Assembly: GCA_964585475.1 (NCBI GenBank)
Contig: CAZPDF010000004.1
Coordinates: 23,169 to 87,168 of the forward strand
Reading direction: 5' to 3'
Length of the DNA stretch: 64,000 nucleotides
Origin: an uncultured Candidatus Saccharibacteria bacterium
Lineage (GTDB): Bacteria > Patescibacteriota > Minisyncoccia > Sungbacterales > HO2-52-23
Shown here: in pieces, positions 4,640 through 62,488 of the stretch
How the letters are laid out: each line of letters opens with the position of its first letter
How positions within the stretch are numbered: position 1 is the stretch's first letter
Program-made: the position numbers and the translations under genes
The notes under the pieces: model-generated
What the model saw: the letters and a program-made list of their open reading frames with translations, nothing else
Told to the model about the DNA's origin: nothing
Database searches by the model: none

Positions 4640-5298
4640 ATATCGAGGTCCTAAGCCAATTGCAGAAAGATTTTCTTGAAAAAATTGGGCGAACCCCTTA
4701 TTTAAGAGACAATTTCTATCTTACCGGAGGCACCGCTCTTGCCGCTTTTTATTTAAAGCACCGTTATTCGGAGGATTTGGATTTTTTCAGCGAAAAGGAA
4801 GTTGATATGATCAATCTTAATGTGTCGGTGGCCAAGCTTAAAACATTTCCCGGAGTAGTTAAGACGGATTTTGAGCAAAGTTATAACCGAAATTTGATCT
4901 TTTTTCATTTCAAAGAAGTCGTTCTGAAAACCGAATTCACTTTTTTCCCTTTCCCAAGAATTGAAAAAGGGGAGGCGCAATACGGGCTCTATATTGATAG
5001 CCTTTTGGATATTGCCGTAAATAAGCTTTTTACGATTTACCAAAGAAGCGCTGCGAGAGATTATATTGATTTATATTTTATATGTAAAGATGATAAATTT
5101 GAAATTGCCGATTTAATTAAAAAAGCTAAAATAAAATTTGACTGGCACGTCGACCCTTTACAGTTAGGGACGCAATTTATTAAGTCGGCCGAAGCGAAAG
5201 ATTATCCCAGAATGATAATTGATATCAAACCGGAAGAATGGCAAAATTTTTTCCTGAAAAAGGCAAAAGAGTTAAGATCAGAGGTTTTAGAATTTTAA
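4636..5298 (+). CDS. nucleotidyltransferase, AbiEii/AbiGii toxin family (DUF1814-like)
   Basis: 220 aa; N-terminal YLTGGTALAAFYLKHRYSEDLDFF resembles AbiEii-family NTase signature. Confidence 0.65.
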   Translation: MNIEVLSQLQKDFLEKIGRTPYLRDNFYLTGGTALAAFYLKHRYSEDLDFFSEKEVDMINLNVSVAKLKTFPGVVKTDFEQSYNRNLIFFHFKEVVLKTEFTFFPFPRIEKGEAQYGLYIDSLLDIAVNKLFTIYQRSAARDYIDLYFICKDDKFEIADLIKKAKIKFDWHVDPLQLGTQFIKSAEAKDYPRMIIDIKPEEWQNFFLKKAKELRSEVLEF

Positions 5299-23580: not shown

Positions 23581-23604
23581 AAATCACTAATCAAGCTCGA
23601 ATTT

Positions 23605-23673
23605 AATTCGCGAATGCCCGTAGTGAGCCTGTCGAACTATTCGCGAATAGGATTAGAGATTGATTCGCGATAC
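23605..23673. promoter_or_regulatory. three TTCGCGAA-type palindromes upstream of lemA
   Basis: AATTCGCGAAT at 23605-23615, TATTCGCGAATA at 23638-23649, GATTCGCGATAC at 23662-23673. Confidence 0.35.
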
Positions 23674-54176: not shown

Positions 54177-57100
54177 CTATTGATCGGAAGTTCTTCTCCA
54201 GAAAAATTCAATGATGCTCGCAAAAAGTCCTCTCGGCGTGGAGGATGTTTGCGACTGGGTACCGGAGGGCATAAATTGCTTGCATGCCAGATCCTGGTAA
54301 TTTTTAGTGCAGTAAGACGTGCATTCTTCAGGAGTTTTGCAACCGCCCGGTCCGCTGAAGTCCGTCTGCGATGAACCAGAGCATTTGCCCTTACTACCAG
54401 CATTAAAGATGGTCTGGACTTCGGACGCGTTTAACGCCCTGTTGTATACGGAGGCCTCATCAATCAAGCCGGAGAAAAATTCAGTGCTACTCCGCCATGA
54501 CCCGAGCGTAAACGGATCATCGCTCGTTGATTGTGTATTTGGAGCCTGCCGAAGGATAGTTCCCCGCGACTCGCCATCCACATATAATTTGACGTTGCCA
54601 GAACCATCTTTCGTGCCAACGGCATGATGCCAAACTCCCGAACTAACAGGCGCGGTAACGATGGTCTGACCTTCAGCTTTGGTAGTTTCTCCAACAGAAA
54701 ATTCCAATGTTCCATTACCTACCCTAAGCCAGTATCCCGATCCGGGGCCGCTTGAAGGATAGTTTGATTTTCGGATGATGTTATTTACGGATGATCCACC
54801 ACCCCAATGAAACCAGGCTTCCAAAGAAAATGGTCCGGTCCCGAAATTTAGATTCGCGGGATTTCCGATATTGACGCTACCCGCATTAAATTTGAGCGCA
54901 TTCCCTACTTTTCCGTCGTCAGCGATAGCGGCCCCACCAGAGAGAGTCCCGCTATTTCCATCAGCACTGTCTGACGCACTTGCGTCCCCCTTCCACCAAC
55001 TGACTAAACCTGAAGGCACCGGGGCGCAACTTTGAGTTGGAGGTGGTGGCGGAGGCGGCAGAATAGAGCACGCTGCAAATTCACAGTTTGGCGCTACACG
55101 ACCAACACTACTTCCGTTAGGACACTGTTTTAGATCTTCGGGGCAAGCAAGGCCGCCTCCGTAAGCAACGCAGGCAGGATCGGTGTAGTGGGTTTGACAA
55201 TAAGCTTTACATTCGGCTTGGCTTAGGCAACCGCCTGGGCCTGGTTCACCGCCAGTGCTTCCTCCTCCGCCGATATAGGAAGCACAAACTGGATCAGTGT
55301 AATGGGCGGTACAATAAGCTATACATTCTTCTTTATTCGTGCAGCCACCAGGGCCATTAAAGCCGCCTCCCCCGCCAGACGGAGGTTGGAAACCTCCAGG
55401 CAATCCACCTGCTCCGCCAGGCGGCTGAAAGCCCTTGCAAGCATCCGGATGTTCCTGACAATATGCTTTACATTCTTCTTGACTCTTGCATCCTCCAGGC
55501 CCGCCCGGGAATCCTCCACTTCCTCCTCCCGGAGGACCAAAACCTTCGCACTCTTCTTGATGGGCGGTGCAATACTCAATGCATTCTTCTGTATTTTTAC
55601 ATCCTCCCGGTCCGCTAAATCCCCCCTCGCCAAAATTACCTCCTCCACCTAACGATTGCTGTAGTTGCTCAAAACATCCTTCCAATGACTCAAAATTCAA
55701 ATCCTCGCCGAATTCCCCACTTTGGAGTTTCCGAAGCCCGTCTTCCCCAACCGCACCTTTAATGCACTCTACTGCTTCGGGTGGCAACTTGCTTAATTTT
55801 TGGCTTAAGTCGGCAGTCATCTGACCAAAGCAGGATTTCATTTTTCCTTCCATACCTCTGTCAAAAATCGGCTTGCCGTTCTTGATTTTCTCGAAATTTT
55901 CTTCGCCAAGAGCATCCTCAAGACATTGGACGACCTCGGGCGGCATTTTATCAAGATTTTCGCGGAACTGCTCCATTCCCTTGCTCATTCGTTCAAGGTC
56001 GGCTTCGCTCATTAGTCCATGTTCCTTGGCAAAATTGAAGCACTCCTCGGAATTTTCTTCACAATACGCCTCGCATTGCGTCTTGCTGTGGCATCCGCCC
56101 GGTCCTTTTCCTCCTACTTTTCTTACCATTTCGGCTTCTTCCGCCGTCATAACCCCGGCTTTTTCAGCAAAGGCAATGCACTCCTCTATATGATTATCTT
56201 CAGAACAGTAATTCTCGCATTGTTCTTTGGAGGTGCAGCCGCCCGGGCTCTCGCCCTGGCGCATCAAAACCATGAACTTCCTTGCCTCATCAATCTCTTC
56301 CTGAGGCATGAAGCCGCTTTTTTCGGCGAAATTCAAACACTCTTCCATGTGACTGGAATCACTGCAATAAATCTCGCAGGTGTTTCTGTCTTTACAACCG
56401 CCCGGGAACTGCGCGCCGGATTTTACCAATCCTTGAAATTTTCTAGCCTCGGCCAATTCGTCGCCGGAATAATAGCCGGTCTCCTCGGCAAAGGCGATGC
56501 ATTGATCAAGATGATCAATCGTATTGCAATAATTTTCGCAGGAAGACCAGGAGTTGCAGCCGCCGGGGCCATTTTTAATGTTCAGGAATTTATCAGCTGC
56601 TTCTTTGGATTCTTGTTCCGAAATCAAATTGTATTTTTTGGCAAACGCGAGACACTCTTTGGCGTGGTCAACATTATCACAATAGGAACGGCATTCGGCC
56701 TCGCTTTGACAATTTCCCAACTCGGGTACGGGGTATTGAATATCTTCTGCCGAAAGCGGTCCCTCTTTCTTCTCTTCTTGCGGAGGTGGAGGAGGCGGCG
56801 GAGGAGGCACTTCTTTTTTCACCGCGACACTTTTAGCTACTCCTTTAACAGGGGGGGAAATCTCAAGCTCGGTGGTATTGTTTTGACAATCAACAACATA
56901 GGCGGGCATCACCGGCGTAAAATCGGAGGGATCACGGAAGGATACGTTGTCGCTCACAAAAGATTTGCTGCAACCGCTCAACAACCCGCCGTAACGGAAT
57001 TGCTCTACCGGAGAAAGCGAAAACTCCTGAACGCCGTCGGGGTCTCTGATGGTTAAGGTAAATGCTTCGGAACCGGGGGGTTTTTTAAAATTTATTGAGG

Positions 57101-57209
57101 AATCATTGACGGCTGCCTCGACGTGGATGGTCGCCAAACTCAACAAAAAGGAAAGTACCAATATACTTGCGGCTAATAATTTCGTGGTTGTAATTGTCTT
57201 GGTATTCAT
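54177..57209 (-). CDS. secreted protein with ~8 tandem Cys-rich ~45-aa repeats, poly-Pro and Gly-rich linkers, and C-terminal LamG (concanavalin-A-like) domain
   Basis: 1010 aa; signal peptide; repeats GGC.S...CE.YC.......EC..FA...G; PPPPPPPPPQ; LamG-like region with LYVDG, VWHHAVG and LIDEASVYNRAL motifs. Confidence 0.65.
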   Translation of the reverse strand: MNTKTITTTKLLAASILVLSFLLSLATIHVEAAVNDSSINFKKPPGSEAFTLTIRDPDGVQEFSLSPVEQFRYGGLLSGCSKSFVSDNVSFRDPSDFTPVMPAYVVDCQNNTTELEISPPVKGVAKSVAVKKEVPPPPPPPPPQEEKKEGPLSAEDIQYPVPELGNCQSEAECRSYCDNVDHAKECLAFAKKYNLISEQESKEAADKFLNIKNGPGGCNSWSSCENYCNTIDHLDQCIAFAEETGYYSGDELAEARKFQGLVKSGAQFPGGCKDRNTCEIYCSDSSHMEECLNFAEKSGFMPQEEIDEARKFMVLMRQGESPGGCTSKEQCENYCSEDNHIEECIAFAEKAGVMTAEEAEMVRKVGGKGPGGCHSKTQCEAYCEENSEECFNFAKEHGLMSEADLERMSKGMEQFRENLDKMPPEVVQCLEDALGEENFEKIKNGKPIFDRGMEGKMKSCFGQMTADLSQKLSKLPPEAVECIKGAVGEDGLRKLQSGEFGEDLNFESLEGCFEQLQQSLGGGGNFGEGGFSGPGGCKNTEECIEYCTAHQEECEGFGPPGGGSGGFPGGPGGCKSQEECKAYCQEHPDACKGFQPPGGAGGLPGGFQPPSGGGGGFNGPGGCTNKEECIAYCTAHYTDPVCASYIGGGGSTGGEPGPGGCLSQAECKAYCQTHYTDPACVAYGGGLACPEDLKQCPNGSSVGRVAPNCEFAACSILPPPPPPPTQSCAPVPSGLVSWWKGDASASDSADGNSGTLSGGAAIADDGKVGNALKFNAGSVNIGNPANLNFGTGPFSLEAWFHWGGGSSVNNIIRKSNYPSSGPGSGYWLRVGNGTLEFSVGETTKAEGQTIVTAPVSSGVWHHAVGTKDGSGNVKLYVDGESRGTILRQAPNTQSTSDDPFTLGSWRSSTEFFSGLIDEASVYNRALNASEVQTIFNAGSKGKCSGSSQTDFSGPGGCKTPEECTSYCTKNYQDLACKQFMPSGTQSQTSSTPRGLFASIIEFFWRRTSDQ

Positions 57210-57309
57210 CCCGTTAGAAATTTAGGGCTAATTTTAATACTTATTTCGTCCAGCAAATAATCACTCATCGTACGCTCCATTAAAGACGGTGCCCCATCTC
57301 TAACGGGAT
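57207..57309 (-). repeat. TCTAACGGGA inverted-pair intergenic element
   Basis: CCCGTTAGAAA 57210-57220 abuts ATG 57209 of the LamG-protein gene; TCTCTAACGGG 57297-57307 lies 10 nt past the stop of the upstream gene; 75-bp spacer. Confidence 0.5.
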
Positions 57310-57317
57310 TCACGCCT

Positions 57318-57569
57318 TTATCGTAACGGATTTATGTATTTAAATGGATTGGCCCGATCAAGCGGATTTACTTCCGGAACTTTTTCTCCGAGATTGGTTT
57401 GGATTTCCGGAACCGATTTGCTTAGAGCTTCGGCCGTTCCAACCGCGCTAGCCGGCTCGATAGGTTCCTGGACTTTTTTTTGCGACCAATACCAAAAACC
57501 TCCGGCAATCAGTGCCGCCAGTATAATAGTAACAACAACAAAAATGGGTTTTGATTTTGAATCATTCAT
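57318..57569 (-). CDS. small membrane-anchored hypothetical protein
   Basis: 83 aa; one N-terminal TM. Confidence 0.35.
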   Translation of the reverse strand: MNDSKSKPIFVVVTIILAALIAGGFWYWSQKKVQEPIEPASAVGTAEALSKSVPEIQTNLGEKVPEVNPLDRANPFKYINPLR

Positions 57570-57716
57570 AAACCTAATTGATATTATACCGCAACATATC
57601 GGTCTTGATAAACAGGCTTATACACAGATATTCGTTCTGGCGAGTCCATAATAATGCTCCTGATTTTCCAGATGTATTCAAGGATTAACTTAAGACTTAA
57701 GAAATTTTAACTATAC

Positions 57717-57744
57717 TTGATTTTTCTCTTTCCCGATATAGAAT
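57717..57744 (+). promoter_or_regulatory. candidate sigma70-like promoter (TTGATT-16-TAGAAT) for the aldolase-family gene
   Basis: -35-like TTGATT 57717-57722; -10-like TAGAAT 57739-57744; AGGAGG SD before ATG 57775. Confidence 0.35.
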
Positions 57745-57774
57745 GCACTTGAGTCCTAACTTTAGGAGGCCTCG

Positions 57775-58452
57775 ATGTCGCTGGCGGATGATCTTTGCAA
57801 AATAGGAAAATCGCTTGCCGAAAGAAATTTCGTCCACTATCTCCTCGGCACCATCAGCGCCAGATCCTCCGAAAATCCTCACACCTATCTCGTAAAGCCG
57901 GCCGAATGCCTTTACGAACTGGCGAATCCTAGCGACTTCGCTCTGGTAAATGAGGACGGAGACCCGGTTGACGGCACCGACCGCCGGCCCTCGTTAAATT
58001 TCCTAGTCCACCTTGCCTGTTACCGGGCCAGGCCGGATATCGGCGGGGTCGTACACGCTCATCCGGAAAAGACAACCGCTTTAATCTCTCAGGATCACCC
58101 TGCTTTTAACGGCATACCCAGTAGGATCCCGCTTCTTACGCAGGAAGGCGTATGGATGGTCAAAAATTGGCATATTCCTATTGTGGAAGACCTCGACCCG
58201 AAAGAACTTGCCGAAGCGGTTTCCGAAAAAATTCTTGAGGCCAATGTCGTGGCCATACGAAACCACGGCATCATAGCCGTCGGAAAAAGCATATGGGAAG
58301 CATACGGCGCCGCGCTGGTTGCAGAAAGCGAGGCGGTGATGCTCGGTTCGATTATCAGCATGGGCGGAAAGCCGCTCATCCGAAACCCGGAAACCGGAGA
58401 AACTGATCTTTGCAAAATGCCGTCGCGGACGTTTTCCAAAAAATTCACATAA
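57775..58452 (+). CDS. class II aldolase/adducin-family protein
   Basis: 225 aa; VVHAHPE metal-binding motif and fold-typical glycine patterns; strong SD. Confidence 0.7.
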   Translation: MSLADDLCKIGKSLAERNFVHYLLGTISARSSENPHTYLVKPAECLYELANPSDFALVNEDGDPVDGTDRRPSLNFLVHLACYRARPDIGGVVHAHPEKTTALISQDHPAFNGIPSRIPLLTQEGVWMVKNWHIPIVEDLDPKELAEAVSEKILEANVVAIRNHGIIAVGKSIWEAYGAALVAESEAVMLGSIISMGGKPLIRNPETGETDLCKMPSRTFSKKFT

Positions 58453-58490
58453 TATCCCCGCCTTTCACGGCGGGTTTTAAATATCCCTTC

Positions 58491-59264
58491 CTAGGAAAAT
58501 TTTGCTTTGGGATCTATCCCACGGATAGGTCCTCCGAGTTTCCGAACTGCTTTTTTCACTCTTATCATACAGCCCTCCAAATCCGAGACAATATCCTTTT
58601 CTGACAAACGAATAACCCTCCAACCGCACCGCCGAAGAACAGCGTTTTTTATTTTATCTTTCTGCCTCTTACGCAAACCGGAATGGGCCTTTTTATTATC
58701 ACACTCAATAGCTATCAATCCTTGCCGGCAAAATACGGCAAAATCTATACAATATCGTTTCTGGCCGCATGCGACGTGGTATTGGGCGCGCACTCCGATG
58801 CCGGTGAGCTTCAAACCATCCTCTATCATCTGCTCGGTCGGAACGACGTTATAAAGCTGTAAAATATTTCTGGATTTCAACAAACGATTTAGGGTGGTAA
58901 AACCGAAGGAAATGCGGCGCGGTATTATATTTCTGACGGGCCGAGGCAGTTTCTTGACCCTACCGACACGAAGCCGGAAATAGTAATCGCGGGCCCTCGG
59001 ATGATTTAACTCATCCGGTAGCAACTCGCTCCTTTTAATAGTTTGCTGATTTAAAACACGGGCATAATATAGAATACGCCTTCCCCGACGGCCGAACCTG
59101 GCGGGCTGATAGAAAGCAAGGTAATGGAATGGCCGCGCCGGCGCATGCGCCAAGGGAATTCTATACCACTTTTTGGTTAAAAGGATGCCAAGATCGCGCT
59201 TGTTTTTGAGCACGCCGACTAAAACGATTTTATCTATTTTATCTTTAGCATAATTCTTGACCAT
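58491..59264 (-). CDS. DUF559 (Vsr-like endonuclease fold) domain protein with uncharacterised N-terminal region
   Basis: 257 aa; C-terminal YCIDFAV....LIAIECDNKKAH.........LRRCGWRVIRL matches the DUF559 pattern. Confidence 0.55.
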   Translation of the reverse strand: MVKNYAKDKIDKIVLVGVLKNKRDLGILLTKKWYRIPLAHAPARPFHYLAFYQPARFGRRGRRILYYARVLNQQTIKRSELLPDELNHPRARDYYFRLRVGRVKKLPRPVRNIIPRRISFGFTTLNRLLKSRNILQLYNVVPTEQMIEDGLKLTGIGVRAQYHVACGQKRYCIDFAVFCRQGLIAIECDNKKAHSGLRKRQKDKIKNAVLRRCGWRVIRLSEKDIVSDLEGCMIRVKKAVRKLGGPIRGIDPKAKFS

Positions 59265-59311
59265 ATTTTGGGCCTACGGCTAGCCCCGGAAAAGTCCATG
59301 GCTAAATTTTT

Positions 59312-59426
59312 ATCCCGTTAGAGGCAGATCGCGATCACGATAGCGCAATCTTTGTGTATTACTCCATAAATTCGACCTTGTATATTTTATTTATCCTGCA
59401 AGAAGCGATCGCGGCCTCTAACGGGA
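59312..59426 (-). repeat. TCTAACGGGA inverted-pair element with extended arms
   Basis: ATCCCGTTAGAGGCAGATCGCGATC (59312-59336) and GATCGCGGCCTCTAACGGGAT (59406-59426); ~20-bp imperfect inverted repeat, ~70-bp AT-rich spacer; ~50 nt upstream of the DUF559 gene start. Confidence 0.5.
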
Positions 59427-59469
59427 TTTATCCGGTGTGAGCGAACATAAGTTTTTTAAACTATTCTCC

Positions 59470-59487
59470 AATTCGCGCGAATTGGCC
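59470..59487. promoter_or_regulatory. perfect 18-bp palindrome CCAATTCGCGCGAATTGG
   Basis: Self-complementary; no adjacent T-tract in the orientation required for a terminator; TTCGCG..CGAA core resembles the 23.6 kb palindromes. Confidence 0.3.
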
Positions 59488-59607
59488 AAAAAAATATAAC
59501 TTTGAAATAGTGTTTATAAACTACCCTGCTACCCTGACGCATCAGGCGTTATGACGCATCACCCGTCTCGGTCGGGTGCTCAAAGAGTCTGGCCCCCTTG
59601 GTATCGA

Positions 59608-61419
59608 TTACCCTTTCCGACGGGCCCTTGAGCGCTCAACTTCGGTAAGATACTGCTTTCGCAAACGAACGCTTTGCGGAGTAATCTCAAGGTATTCATC
59701 CTCGGATATAATTTCAAGTCCGCGCTCGATCGTAAGCACAAATGGCGGAGTAAGATTGATCGCTTCGTCCGAACCGGAAGCACGCATATTCGTAAGCTGT
59801 TTACCTTTCGTCGGATTAACCCTCATTTCTTCTCCTTTTGACGTGTTACCGATCACCATTCCTTCATAAACTTCAATTTGCGAGCCTATGTAGAGCGTGC
59901 CGCGCTCCTGAAGCCCCCATAACGCATATCCCATGGCAACACCCTTTGCCATCGAGATCATTGAACCGACAGCGCGTTTATGAATTTCTCCGGCATACGG
60001 CTTAAAGCCGAGAACACGTGAGGCAAAAATACCCTCGCCTTTGGTATCAATCACAAATTGATTGCGATATCCAAGAATGCCTCTCGTCGGCCCCTCAAAA
60101 GACATCCGTACGGCCTCGCCTTTGTGAGAAATATTGTTTAAAACAAAGCCGCGGGACCCAATCCGCTTAATTATAACACCCTGGTATTCGCCGGGTATAT
60201 CAATAATTACCTCTTCAAACGGTTCGAGTTTCTTGCCATTTTCTTCACGAATTATGACTTGGGGTTGCGAAACTTGAAGCTCAAAACCGGCCCGCCGCAT
60301 ATTTTCAAGAAGGATTGCAATATGAAGCTCCCCTCTGCCCAACACCCGGAAGCTTTCCGAAGAACTAAAATCAATGCGAAGACCCACGTTTACTTCAAGT
60401 TCACGTTCAAGGTATTCCCGGAGTTGCCGAGAAGTCACGTACTTTCCTTCCCGCCCGGCAAATGGAGAATTATTCACCAAAAAATTCAGCGCAATAGTCG
60501 GCTCATCAACCGCGATTGCGGGCAAGGGTTTGGCATCCCGGTCAGTCGTAACCGTCTCACCAATATCAATATCGGGAAGTCCTGCCACAAGAATTATGTC
60601 GCCGGCACCCGCTTCAGCGGATTCTATTTTTTCGAGCCCCTTGAAAGTAAAAATCTTTGTAATTTTTCCGGAGCGAGTTTCACCATTCTGTTTTTTTACG
60701 AATACATCGGCCCCCGTCTTGGCGATACCTTCATATATTCTTCCAACCGCAAGCCGTCCCAAAAAATTATCATACCCCAAGTTAAACGGCTGGAGCTTTA
60801 AGGGTTTCTGGGCCAGCTCTTCAGATGACGCAGAAGGAATATGCGCGAGAATGGTATCGAGAAGCGGAGACAAATCATGTGATTCATCGGTGAGCTTTAA
60901 AGTCGCAATTCCTGCCCGGCCGTTAGCATAGACCACCGGAAAATCCGCTTGCTCATCATCGGCCCCGAGTTCGAGGAATAGTGCAAGCACTTCTTCTTCG
61001 CATCGTGCGGGGTCAGCGGCGGGCTTGTCTATTTTATTTATTATCACGATCGGCCTCAGCCCAAGTTCAAGAGATTTTTTTAAAACAAACCGGGTCTGGG
61101 GCATCGGGCCTTCTTGGGCGTCCACGACCAGAAGCACCGAGTCTATTGAACGAAGCACTCGCTCAACCTCGGATCCAAAATCGGCATGTCCCGGGGTATC
61201 GACAATATTAATCTTCGTCGAGACTCGCCCCGAGTTTATCGGGGGATAAAAAATCGCCGCATTTTTTGAATAAATAGTAATCCCGCGCTCAAGTTCCAGC
61301 GCGTTTGAATCCATTGAAACACCCTCTTTGGCAACACCGGTTTGCCGTAGCATCGCGTCAGTCAAAGTGGTTTTCCCATGATCCACATGGGCAATGATTG
61401 CAATGTTTCTTATTTCCAT
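59608..61419 (-). CDS. typA: translational GTPase TypA/BipA
   Basis: 603 aa; N-terminus MEIRNIAIIAHVDHGKTTLTD; EF-G-like domain order. Confidence 0.9.
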   Translation of the reverse strand: MEIRNIAIIAHVDHGKTTLTDAMLRQTGVAKEGVSMDSNALELERGITIYSKNAAIFYPPINSGRVSTKINIVDTPGHADFGSEVERVLRSIDSVLLVVDAQEGPMPQTRFVLKKSLELGLRPIVIINKIDKPAADPARCEEEVLALFLELGADDEQADFPVVYANGRAGIATLKLTDESHDLSPLLDTILAHIPSASSEELAQKPLKLQPFNLGYDNFLGRLAVGRIYEGIAKTGADVFVKKQNGETRSGKITKIFTFKGLEKIESAEAGAGDIILVAGLPDIDIGETVTTDRDAKPLPAIAVDEPTIALNFLVNNSPFAGREGKYVTSRQLREYLERELEVNVGLRIDFSSSESFRVLGRGELHIAILLENMRRAGFELQVSQPQVIIREENGKKLEPFEEVIIDIPGEYQGVIIKRIGSRGFVLNNISHKGEAVRMSFEGPTRGILGYRNQFVIDTKGEGIFASRVLGFKPYAGEIHKRAVGSMISMAKGVAMGYALWGLQERGTLYIGSQIEVYEGMVIGNTSKGEEMRVNPTKGKQLTNMRASGSDEAINLTPPFVLTIERGLEIISEDEYLEITPQSVRLRKQYLTEVERSRARRKG

Positions 61420-61518
61420 CCCGTTAGAAGTATACTCTTACTTACATCCCATAATAGAAGAATAAACCGATTTATTACCAAACCCATTAGAAAACTTCTA
61501 CTTAAACTTCTAACGGGG
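61417..61518 (-). repeat. TCTAACGGGA inverted-pair intergenic element
   Basis: CCCGTTAGAAG 61420-61430 abuts typA ATG 61419; CTTCTAACGGGG 61507-61518 abuts obg stop codon 61520-61522; 76-bp spacer. Confidence 0.5.
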
Positions 61519-61519
61519 T

Positions 61520-62488
61520 TCATGCGTATTTTTCTTTTATTAATTTGTTTAGAATTTTCTTTATTTTTACTATGCTGTCAAAATCATGGATTGAGAATAC
61601 ACCGGCTGGCACTTTCTTTTTTTTAAGTGCAGAGAGTTTCTTTTTCAGTTCAGCCGGCGGAACCATGTCGCTTTTTCCCAAAAATACATATTCCTTTTTT
61701 TTGAGAAGAGCTTTGTTATACATTCCGAGCTCTTGTCTGATGGTTTTATAATCTTTATGCGGATCCGGGGATTCGGCGGAAATAATATGAAAGAGAACTT
61801 TTGTCCGCTCAATATGGCGCAAAAACTTTATGCCGAGCCCCTTCCCGCCGGAAGCTCCTTCTACCAGGCCAGGAATATCAGCAAGGACAAGCTCGTAATA
61901 CACCCCTAAATTCGGCTCAAGCGTTGTGAATAAATAATTCGCCACTTTGCTTTTGGCGCGCGTCAATTCATTAAGAAGGCTCGATTTCCCAACATTAGGC
62001 AGACCTATCAGGCCGACATCGGCTATCAGCTTTAATTCAAGACGAAAAGTAAAGCTCTCACCCTGAGCTCCATATCTAAATTGTTTCGGCCTGGTATTCG
62101 TGGAGGAACGGAAATGAAAATTTCCCTTGCCTCCTCTTCCGCCCTTGGCCGCAAAAATGCGCTCGCCGATTGATACAATTTCCGTATCAACGCCGGTAGT
62201 AAGATTATGAATGATGGTTCCGACGGGCACAAGCAATATAAGGTCTTCCGCATCAGATCCGTCGCAAAATTGCCCCCGGCCGTCCTGGCCGTTTTTTGCG
62301 GGAAATTCTTTTTTGAAACGGTATGTTCGTAAAATGCCAAGGTCCGAAGAACTCTCAAAATAAACGCTTCCGCCGCTTCCCCCGGATCCTCCCGCCGGAC
62401 CGAATTGATTGAGATTCTTATTAAACGAAGTAGCACCTCTTCCTCCGTTTCCCGCCAACACCCTGATTGTAATGTCGTCTACAAACAT
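61520..62488 (-). CDS. obg: GTPase Obg/CgtA (short form without C-terminal extension)
   Basis: 322 aa; Gly-rich Obg fold (AGNGGRGATSF...GGSGGSGGS); G1 GLPNVGKSSLL. Confidence 0.85.
   Translation of the reverse strand: MFVDDITIRVLAGNGGRGATSFNKNLNQFGPAGGSGGSGGSVYFESSSDLGILRTYRFKKEFPAKNGQDGRGQFCDGSDAEDLILLVPVGTIIHNLTTGVDTEIVSIGERIFAAKGGRGGKGNFHFRSSTNTRPKQFRYGAQGESFTFRLELKLIADVGLIGLPNVGKSSLLNELTRAKSKVANYLFTTLEPNLGVYYELVLADIPGLVEGASGGKGLGIKFLRHIERTKVLFHIISAESPDPHKDYKTIRQELGMYNKALLKKKEYVFLGKSDMVPPAELKKKLSALKKKKVPAGVFSIHDFDSIVKIKKILNKLIKEKYA

Follow-up and report, generated by a model that had tools for sequence, protein, structure and literature searches.

The inverted pair at positions 59313 to 59426 of the window (the whole 64,000-nt stretch of DNA analyzed here) is best explained as a nonautonomous, MITE-like foldback element that entered a TAAA site downstream of the promoter region and upstream of the start codon of a DUF559 gene, a reading to which we assign a probability of roughly 80%. 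The TTTA repeats on its two sides identify it as an insertion, and it is an ordinary member of a seemingly undescribed, cross-phylum family of hairpin mobile elements. Our observations show its anatomy and target duplication, the empty site of a sister copy in relatives, the spread of the family, and an enrichment of open frames across family loops.

On the plus strand, this element (copy C) reads TTTA/TCCCGTTAGAGGC-AGAT-CGCGATC...66-nt loop...GATCGCG-GCCTCTAACGGGA/TTTA. The minus strand is the sense strand of all neighboring genes, and the parts of the element are as follows.

59309 to 59312, no strand: left copy of the target site duplication (TSD), TTTA on the plus strand and TAAA in gene sense, identical to 59427 to 59430
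59313 to 59325, minus: gene-proximal arm of helix 1, TCCCGTTAGAGGC, pairing with 59414 to 59426
59326 to 59329, minus: 4-nt bulge, AGAT on the plus strand and AUCU in sense, on the gene-proximal arm in 21 of 21 subtype members
59330 to 59338, minus: gene-proximal strand of helix 2, CGCGATC(AC), 95.9% paired over the 21 members
59339 to 59404, minus: A+T-rich variable loop, without similarity to the other copies
59405 to 59413, minus: distal strand of helix 2, (GC)GATCGCG, supported by sequence, fold, and subtype alignment
59414 to 59426, minus: distal arm of helix 1, GCCTCTAACGGGA, pairing with 59313 to 59325
59427 to 59430, no strand: right copy of the TSD, TTTA, as read in the sequence

The outer arms (59313 to 59325, TCCCGTTAGAGGC, against 59414 to 59426, GCCTCTAACGGGA; plus strand) pair over 13 bp, and the inner arms (CGCGATC at 59330 to 59336 with GATCGCG at 59407 to 59413) pair over 7 bp, which one G-U pair extends to 9 bp in minus-strand RNA. 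Between them, AGAT (59326 to 59329) is left unpaired as a one-sided bulge on the left side only. The original prediction had described arms of about 20 bp with a GATCGCG extension; these are real, as 13 bp, a 4-nt bulge, and 7 bp. The repeat finder reported only the 14-nt core of copy C because it allows no gaps. The flanking TTTA/TTTA direct repeats were absent from that prediction. Since the arms are complementary, a transcript crossing the element would fold into a long hairpin. The minus-strand RNA of the region had a predicted folding energy of −45.4 kcal/mol (z = −5.0; 0 of 200 shuffles as good), and folding of copy C as DNA was significant on both strands. We rejected an intrinsic terminator, given a 66-nt loop, a stem followed by AUAAAAAUUUAGCC, and the absence of the element from the terminator-like sites found.

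Copy C is one of four such elements in the window. The exact 9-mer CCCGTTAGA occurred seven times (0.41 expected; 0 of 100 shuffles reached 7), an excess that excludes chance as the origin of the inverted pairs. All seven matches fell in convergent pairs 98 to 114 bp long, and a relaxed scan of the window returned exactly four convergent pairs, all between codirectional minus-strand genes.

19 to 116, minus: copy A, 98 bp, flanks TTCA/CTCA, left arm degenerate (TCCCGCTAAAGAT), abutting the ATG at 19 to 17
57209 to 57308, minus: copy B, 100 bp, flanks TTCA/TTCA at 57205 to 57208 and 57309 to 57312, abutting the ATG at 57209 to 57207
59313 to 59426, minus: copy C, 114-bp inverted pair, flanks TTTA/TTTA
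61419 to 61518, minus: copy D, 100 bp, flanks TCCA/TTCA, between the Obg stop codon and the TypA ATG at 61419 to 61417

The arms were 13 to 14 bp long in all four copies, and all four had 4-bp flanking repeats (two perfect and two with one mismatch; plus strand). In copies A, B, and D, the gene-proximal arm reaches exactly to position −1 relative to the start codon. Mismatches within the arms were G-U pairs on the gene-sense strand, three of them contributed by copies A and B, and hairpin predictions for the window copies gave z scores from −2.5 to −5.0. The neighboring genes encode Obg, TypA, an aldolase, an amylase, and a LamG-domain protein (1010 aa, at copy B); the gene that starts at copy A runs beyond the window edge. 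The interiors of copies A to D showed no mutual similarity above shuffle level. Likewise, comparison of the copy C loop with 140 other elements gave best local scores inside the shuffle range. Copy C is thus a longer-armed member of a set of inverted pairs that also occur at other gene starts of the window, in keeping with the earlier proposal of a family of related elements rather than a fixed protein site.

The family extends well beyond this genome. A scan for CCCGTTAGA-N68-98-TCTAACGGG in one genome per species located at least 120 loci in Patescibacteria (many classes), Saccharibacteria, Omnitrophota, Deltaproteobacteria/Desulfobacterota, Planctomycetota, Spirochaetia, and others. Family ends follow YCCCGTTAGA(RRY)...(RYY)TCTAACGGGR, of which the 9-bp core is conserved partly by construction, the scan having required exact 9-mers. 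At positions 10 to 12 of the arms, outside that core, 60 to 63 of 66 elements were Watson-Crick paired. Element length ranged from 27 to 118 bp, with clusters at 92/93, 99/100, 103/104, and 114 to 116; these peaks were not regular, and helical phasing of element length was rejected. The loop ranged from 4 to about 95 nt, minimal versions being plain hairpins of 27 to 30 nt. Rfam at the gathering threshold returned only tRNAs, and at E ≤ 5 over positions 57100 to 61700 it returned nothing relevant. Literature searches with both 9-mers yielded unrelated papers only and no paper describing the element family, and searches on MITEs in CPR/Patescibacteria gave nothing relevant. Carriage by phage was also rejected, given only 7 viral contigs, 5 of them a single phage without a flanking repeat.

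Sequences outside the arms carry the signature of insertion. Across 139 elements among the matches listed, the six bases outside each arm followed R-T-N-N-A-Y. The central four of these were direct repeats in 94 of 139 elements compared to 21 expected from partner shuffling (maximum of 35 in 1,000 shuffles), whereas they were reverse-complementary in only 6 of 139 compared to 23 expected. Rare flanks were repeated as well (ATCCAT/ATCCAT, ACTCAT/ACTCAT, and GTCTAC/GTCTAG). Because the flanking repeats are direct and not inverted, they point to insertion with a 4-bp target duplication and not to a longer palindromic motif; the family duplicates 4 bp of a preferred target, R-TNNA-Y. Three elements nested inside the loops of others (L107, L101, and L117) had a direct repeat of their own, as in the 30-nt hairpin within L107 (5-bp repeat CGAAG). 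Elements with similar interiors and the same helix-2 variant and bulge preceded unrelated genes in different genomes (L050, L091, L059, and L113), and the element common to L095 and L102 was more alike (∼78%) than the flanks of the two loci. Some sublineages in other genomes have common interiors, unlike the window copies. The loops of two elements (L052 and L076) each contained a whole tRNA gene.

Relatives of the LamG gene at copy B provided the corresponding empty site. LamG homologues of 57 to 65% identity retain a gene of 80 to 90 aa directly upstream, whose counterpart in the window has 83 aa, and at the orthologous sites (L213, L214, and L212) the junction was uninterrupted (...GTGAATACC...). 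It reads CGATAA-ACGC-GTGAAT-ACCCAAACAATTACAA in L213 and GATAA-GGAGT-ATGAAC-TTT in L214, compared to CGATAA-AGGC-G-TGAA-(T-CCCG...100 bp...CGGG-A)-TGAA-T-ACCAAGACAATTACAA in the window. Both flanks of copy B match the relatives, and the extra sequence consists of the element and a second TGAA. The ancestral-type GTG is left upstream, and the working start is now an ATG that takes its A from the final base of the element. This empty site settles the insertion of copy B. Relatives of TypA (82 to 85% identity) had no element at the TypA start; gene order around TypA differs in these relatives, which therefore offer no strict empty site for copy D. At copy C, two loci with a DUF559 homologue (L144 and L154) have the motif CTAATTCGCGCGAATGGTGGAATAGT 12 to 22 nt before the ATG, and in the window this motif lies about 190 nt further from the ATG with copy C between, in an approximate comparison where the element makes up 118 of those nucleotides.

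Copy C belongs to a subtype with two helices, represented by 21 elements of 110 to 117 bp in total, of which 20 are in other genomes. The extended copies that the original prediction had called for therefore exist, with the same layout: helix 1, a 4-nt one-sided spacer, and helix 2 (CRYGRYC). This recurrence excludes chance for the extension as well. Helix 1 comprises 9 invariant and 3 covarying bp; the invariance of the 9-bp core is uninformative because it is built into the search design. The spacer reads ACCT, TCCT, or ATCT in sense and is always on the arm nearest the downstream gene. The inner repeat directly adjoins one terminal repeat (0 nt) but is 4 nt away from the other, and the two ends of the subtype therefore differ. 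In the trimmed subtype alignment, 98.2% of cells paired and seven pairs changed on both sides; pairing fell to 34 to 40% in a control with slid partner columns. Four of the seven helix-2 pairs changed on both sides across the 21 members. Compensating changes at positions 10 to 12 and in helix 2 are not required by an inverted repeat that is merely bound by protein, and they therefore indicate selection on, or generation through, the hairpin. Among non-Watson-Crick pairs on the sense strand of the subtype, G-U outnumbered A-C by 9 to 2, while the broader set showed no strand bias at positions 10 to 12 (G-U 7 versus A-C 6). Pairing data of this kind only modestly favor folding of the sense strand.

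The helix-2 variants bear directly on whether copy C could be a cis-regulatory site of the DUF559 gene, either an operator pair or a switch sensitive to Dam methylation of GATC. GATC occurs four times in copy C, including 59328 to 59331 and 59333 to 59336 on the gene-proximal side and 59407 to 59410 on the distal side, and the element is placed downstream of a promoter-like match and upstream of the DUF559 start, as a regulatory site might be. However, GATC was present in a minority of the 21 members, at positions that covary as base pairs. Helix 2 occurs as CGCGGTC, CGCGGAC, CACGGTC, and CGCGATC, each with the compensating change on the opposite arm, and GATC is therefore incidental. The idea of a methylation-sensitive extension loses its basis, GATC being one of several helix-2 variants. 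The link to the DUF559 gene fared no better: the element was upstream in 0 of 80 loci encoding DUF559 homologues (50 to 75% identity), which led us to reject a DUF559-specific signal, and the same element type stands before unrelated genes in other genomes. We regard a cis-regulatory role of this kind as close to refuted.

The surroundings of copy C are as follows.

58491 to 59264, minus: DUF559/MTES_1575 restriction-endonuclease-like protein, 257 aa, downstream of copy C
59467 to 59520, minus: likely DUF559 promoter, with a sigma70-like match from 59520 to 59493 and the palindrome CCAATTCGCGCGAATTGG at 59467 to 59484; a consensus match only, with the motif preceding the ATG in L144 and L154

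The DUF559 ATG (59264) is separated from copy C by 48 nt, close to the 50 nt first estimated, and copy C occupies a TAAA site (gene sense) and not a start codon. With the promoter-like site upstream of it, copy C would fall in the DUF559 5′ untranslated region and is probably transcribed within an mRNA leader of about 220 nt. Transcription through the element would place its hairpin in that leader, where it would form the strongest predicted hairpin of the four copies. Copy C showed no sign of a gene-specific function. Most likely, it is an insertion that is tolerated and that may influence translation or the stability of the leader, and the effect of its hairpin would be neutral or modestly modulating.

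Many other family members sit directly on start codons. In 66 of 141 elements among the matches listed, one side and only one abutted the start of an open reading frame (ORF) of at least 50 codons, and nearly all 66 had RTGAAY directly before the distal arm. This upstream RTGAAY lies where the start of a tightly packed operon gene would be expected: the stop codon of the upstream gene is the TGA of RTGAAY in 14 cases (ATGA overlap) and lies 5 to 30 nt upstream of it in about 20 further cases. When an element lands on an RTGAAY start codon, as copies B and D did, its last base (A or G) and the duplicated TGAA rebuild the start codon. By our own estimate, a preference for RTGAAY together with the loss of gene-disrupting insertions roughly predicts the share of copies at start codons, because ATGAAY starts form a large part of the harmless targets in a gene-dense genome. 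About 25 asymmetric copies at start codons (17 two-helix elements and 8 with a local hairpin) all had the same orientation, with the spaced end beside the gene; this uniformity requires target-directed orientation or selection. For an invertible promoter, the constant orientation of the asymmetric subtypes was reason for rejection.

The old start, left upstream, often remains connected to the new one by an open frame. Read in the frame of the old start, the loop had no stop codon in 26 of 66 elements, compared to 7 to 13 of 66 in the five other frames, and a stop-free bridge was present in 18 of 34 operon-internal copies compared to 5 of 20 other copies that likewise retain the upstream start. 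In every length class, the arm TCTAACGGG-ATGA supplies, depending on the frame, a UAA, a UGA that overlaps the AUG, or an in-frame fusion; the 23 open bridges ended at UAA (13), just past the AUG (7), or in frame (3). Both operon-internal copies of the window are bridged.

57206 to 57313, minus: bridging ORF of copy B, 35 codons, VNPVRDGAPSLMERTMSDYLLDEISIKISPKFLTG and stop, from the old GTG to a TGA that overlaps the LamG ATG (ATGA)
61410 to 61523, minus: bridging ORF of copy D, 37 codons, MNPVRSLSRSFLMGLVINRFILLLWDVSKSILLTGWK and stop, with an ATG overlapping the Obg TGA (ATGA) and its end 8 nt inside TypA

Operon-internal copies often present a short stop-free ORF running from the old start to a UAA or UGA beside the new AUG. 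Ribosomes from the old start may then cross the loop, melt the hairpin, and reinitiate at the rebuilt start. These sequence statistics suggest a translational relay by which expression of the downstream gene is maintained. The enrichment was limited to continuity of the frame: peptides read from the loops were mutually unrelated except for MNPVR, which is encoded by the arm itself, and length was not bound to one frame, so we rejected a conserved peptide (MNPVR...LTG and stop). An outward promoter in the arm was also rejected, as TCTAAC is 3 nt away from the ATG and the copies had no hexamer at a fixed distance; in the loops, −10-like hexamers had a weak sense-strand bias (46 versus 34 of 66). 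Pairing of arms across genes (mRNA circularization) was discarded, given that the inner positions match their own partner across the spacer.

These same features could be read as those of RNA modules that serve the host, in mRNA processing or stability (e.g., through RNase III) or in translational coupling, with mobility as a mere route of spread. The strong predicted hairpins (z scores of −2.5 to −5.0), the G-U character of arm mismatches on the gene-sense strand in the window, the 66 copies whose 3′ arm ends exactly at −1 relative to the AUG, the enrichment of open bridging ORFs at operon junctions, and the two pairs of arms that enclose tRNAs in the manner of processing stalks are all consistent with such a role. 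However, orthologous junctions function without the element, and copy C lies 48 nt from its gene and is missing at 80 of 80 homologue loci. In addition, Rfam gave no match, and the open-frame signal is explained equally well by selection that merely tolerates insertions. We therefore consider host RNA modules a quite improbable explanation and retain the MITE-like insertion.

With no conserved coding content in the element, the enzyme that mobilizes it must act in trans. The features of the ends alone suggest a cut-and-paste DDE transposase of the IS1380/piggyBac type, as a lead only. The 211 fetched loci (∼1.3 Mb) contained neither a transposase nor an autonomous element with these ends. Clustering of 835 ORFs from 120 loci gave no protein family recurrent beside the elements (no transposase, recombinase, integrase, or HUH enzyme), and the fetched loci contained no kilobase-scale end pairs with matching flanks enclosing a transposase. 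One candidate for an autonomous element, L014, was rejected, being a 325-bp inverted duplication that flanks a gene for a secreted protein.

Of the features by which MITEs are recognized, the family has inverted ends, a target duplication, an empty site (copy B), and a small size without conserved coding, while copies A to D lack an interior common within the genome. That the window copies have only their ends in common is unusual for MITEs within one genome and counts against the MITE-like reading, as does the single orientation of asymmetric copies at start codons, which random DDE insertion would produce only if oriented by the target or filtered by selection. The compensating stem changes, the failure to find a transposase in the fetched loci, and ends of the form YCCC...GGGR in place of plain CC...GG weigh on the same side. 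A less probable reading is that the family is a cross-phylum, orientation-specific hairpin transposon adapted to RTGAAY starts and operon junctions. Such a transposon would rebuild the start codon (GTG to ATG in copy B), exploit a bridging-ORF relay, and carry arbitrary loop cargo including tRNA genes, implying an undescribed hairpin-recognizing enzyme rather than an IS-derived MITE.

The conserved stem around a variable loop also raises the question of whether the hairpin is a folded single-strand recombination site with the loop as cargo, inserted in one orientation into RTNNAY by a tyrosine recombinase (attC-like or Xer/CTX-like) or an HUH enzyme. The stem is conserved around a loop of 4 to about 95 nt that can hold a whole tRNA gene (L052 and L076), its compensating changes and one-sided 4-nt bulge recall the extrahelical bases of attC, and orientation relative to the flanking repeat is fixed. 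The modest sense-strand excess in the subtype (G-U 9 versus A-C 2) points in the same direction, and ends joined over one repeat as a perfect arm-6 bp-arm were found once (TCTAACGGG-ATTCAT-CCCGTTAGA; L026). Nevertheless, the GTT/AAC box order around the loop is reversed relative to attC, the flanking genes are housekeeping genes (Obg and TypA) and not cassettes, and no integrase or HUH gene is recurrent nearby. The strand excess also disappears in the broader set (G-U 7 versus A-C 6 at positions 10 to 12), and a 4-bp duplication preferring T..A is a typical trait of DDE transposition. We consider a recombination site unlikely and the MITE-like insertion the better account of copy C.

CPR (Patescibacteria) genomes are considered streamlined, with little mobile DNA, and this family is common to them and to Omnitrophota, Desulfobacterota, Planctomycetota, and others; it may thus mark the exchange of DNA between uncultivated bacteria of groundwater and sediment. 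Annotation is affected as well: elements located exactly at gene starts leave behind an upstream decoy start codon and give rise to short ORFs that begin with MNPVR, and gene callers miss starts at such junctions, as in L213, where the true GTG start of the LamG gene is 87 nt upstream of the called ATG. If true, the relay would show how compact operons tolerate insertions between translationally coupled genes. Identification of the enzyme that moves hairpins of 27 to 118 bp could bring to light a new branch of the IS1380/piggyBac type in prokaryotes or a new hairpin-specific recombinase.

Several known systems resemble the family in part. Like integron attC sites (57 to 141 nt in total), the elements have paired GTT/AAC boxes, a covarying inner stem, a one-sided spacer, and a variable loop. 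However, they read 5′-GTTAGA...TCTAAC-3′ around the loop, whereas attC reads 5′-RYYYAAC...GTTRRRY-3′. An attC site was rejected on this reversed box order, which holds on both strands (5′-CCCGTTAGA...TCTAACGGG-3′), and on the housekeeping neighbors, with no integrase and no cassette array seen. REP/BIME/REPIN sequences (RAYT) are likewise high-copy extragenic palindromes with a minimal unit of about 27 to 30 nt and GTRA beside the stem, but REPs have a GTAG head on one side and no target duplication. We rejected a REP/BIME identity, given direct repeats on both sides, a head motif of RTRA-AY and not GTAG, and no RAYT gene seen.

With respect to the ends, IS1380 and piggyBac offer a partial likeness. 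The terminal and inner inverted repeats of piggyBac are spaced unequally at the two ends, as are those of the two-helix subtype. Both IS1380 and piggyBac make 4-bp duplications and have CC..GG ends (PMC10045372), and piggyBac ends read ttaa/CCCTAGAAAGATA (PMC3078864). The corresponding sequence here is T(NN)A/YCCCGTTAGAAAT, with a duplication that also has T first and A last (TTAA in piggyBac); the terminal sequence CCCGTTAGAAAT can be set against CCCTAGAAAGATA, a likeness that covers few bases only. Unlike in IS1380 and piggyBac, an extra Y/R base pair lies outside CCC...GGG (Y-CCCG...CGGG-R), one base from the duplication. Moreover, the target is looser (TGAA, TAAA, TTCA, and others), and the fetched loci yielded no such transposase with these ends. 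We take the resemblance as a lead and not as membership.

Rickettsia palindromic elements and the mitochondrial "byp" GC hairpins of Magnusiomyces are small mobile hairpins in, or at the edge of, coding regions, where they persist because translation copes with them. Like them, the elements described here are small hairpin insertions between matching short repeats. Those elements are translated in frame or hopped, whereas here insertion is at the first two codons and the start is rebuilt; the data suggest termination and reinitiation, with only 3 of 23 open bridges in frame.

Correia/NEMIS (Neisseria), ERIC/IRU (enterobacteria), and RUP/BOX (pneumococci) are bacterial MITEs that are cotranscribed and fold into hairpins. 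The family shares with the Correia, ERIC, and RUP type a size of about 100 to 150 bp, terminal inverted repeats, a short target duplication, an absence of coding capacity, an intergenic or operon-junction position near gene starts, and long RNA hairpins. It differs in its ends (YCCCGTTAGA) and in its 4-bp TNNA duplication, compared to TA in Correia, and also in having only its ends in common within a genome, a loop of 4 to about 95 nt, and a distribution over several phyla. Finally, unlike in those MITEs, about half of the copies here sit exactly on a start codon rebuilt by the element, and this start-codon behavior is the interesting part of the family.

Two elements of the hairpin family, both outside the window, enclose a complete tRNA gene. 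At L052 (4972 to 5059), a tRNA-Thr(CGT) gene fills the space between the arms exactly, and a partial copy of this tRNA follows the element; at L076 (432 to 538), the enclosed gene is a tRNA-Val(GAC) gene inside a tRNA cluster. The L014 locus carries an inverted duplication of ∼325 bp (2046 to 2369 and 4832 to 5155) on both sides of a gene for a 686-aa secreted protein, with one 92-nt element per arm; this 92-nt element was found again on two more contigs of the same genome (L009 and L081). A pair with the same arms (91 nt), without flanking direct repeats, is present in one phage lineage (IMG/VR contigs L126 to L130), and short hairpin versions of the element occur at L125 and L131.

Several elements also contain a degenerate additional arm (TCTAAYNGGG) a few nucleotides from the distal arm, which gives an alternative short hairpin in competition with the long-range stem. 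Its carriers are as follows.

Window, 61483 to 61491: additional arm within copy D, a minus-strand element
L015, L016, and L094: additional arm in elements outside the window

Some relatives have a LamG-gene junction orthologous to the one holding copy B in the window. In one of these (L212, 1490 to 1525), the junction holds a hairpin that is unrelated to copy B and has 12 bp in its stem (CCCACACCTAT-GTAT-ATAGGTGTGGG); the same operon junction was therefore hit by a different small palindrome. In another relative (L213), the annotated LamG-gene start is probably wrong, and an in-frame GTG leads to an N terminus matching that of the window protein (VNTQTITIPKLLAA... versus MNTKTITTTKLLAA...).

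L213, 1414 to 1500: LamG-gene start region, GTG at 1414 versus called ATG at 1501

Within the window itself, many genes look leaderless, judging from the sequence, because a TATAAT-like hexamer lies 6 to 10 nt 5′ of the ATG without a Shine-Dalgarno sequence. AGGAGG is present at a minority of gene starts (e.g., 57775).

Window, 1406, 1427, 6474, 24045, 35507, and 49433: example gene starts with the TATAAT-like hexamer

Downstream of TypA (window 59530 to 59600), we observed a hairpin, CACCCGACCGAGACGGGTG, without a U run, together with a direct repeat, TGACGCATCA...TGACGCATCA. Nearby, directly downstream of a promoter-like match, CCAATTCGCGCGAATTGG forms a perfect 18-bp palindrome (59467 to 59484). 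Another intergenic region of the window (23603 to 23672) contains three ATTCGCGA(A)T boxes, and a different conserved palindrome of ∼30 nt, ACATTCYRACATTCTNNAGAATGTYRGAATGT, is located upstream of other DUF559 homologues.

L138, L139, L146, L149, L170, and L177: ACATTCYRACATTCTNNAGAATGTYRGAATGT palindrome, 30 to 90 nt upstream of the DUF559 homologue

The CCAATTCGCGCGAATTGG motif itself recurs with GGAATAGT ahead of DUF559 homologues on two metagenome contigs (L144, ∼500 to 530; L154, ∼245 to 275), and this palindrome may be an operator for some regulator.
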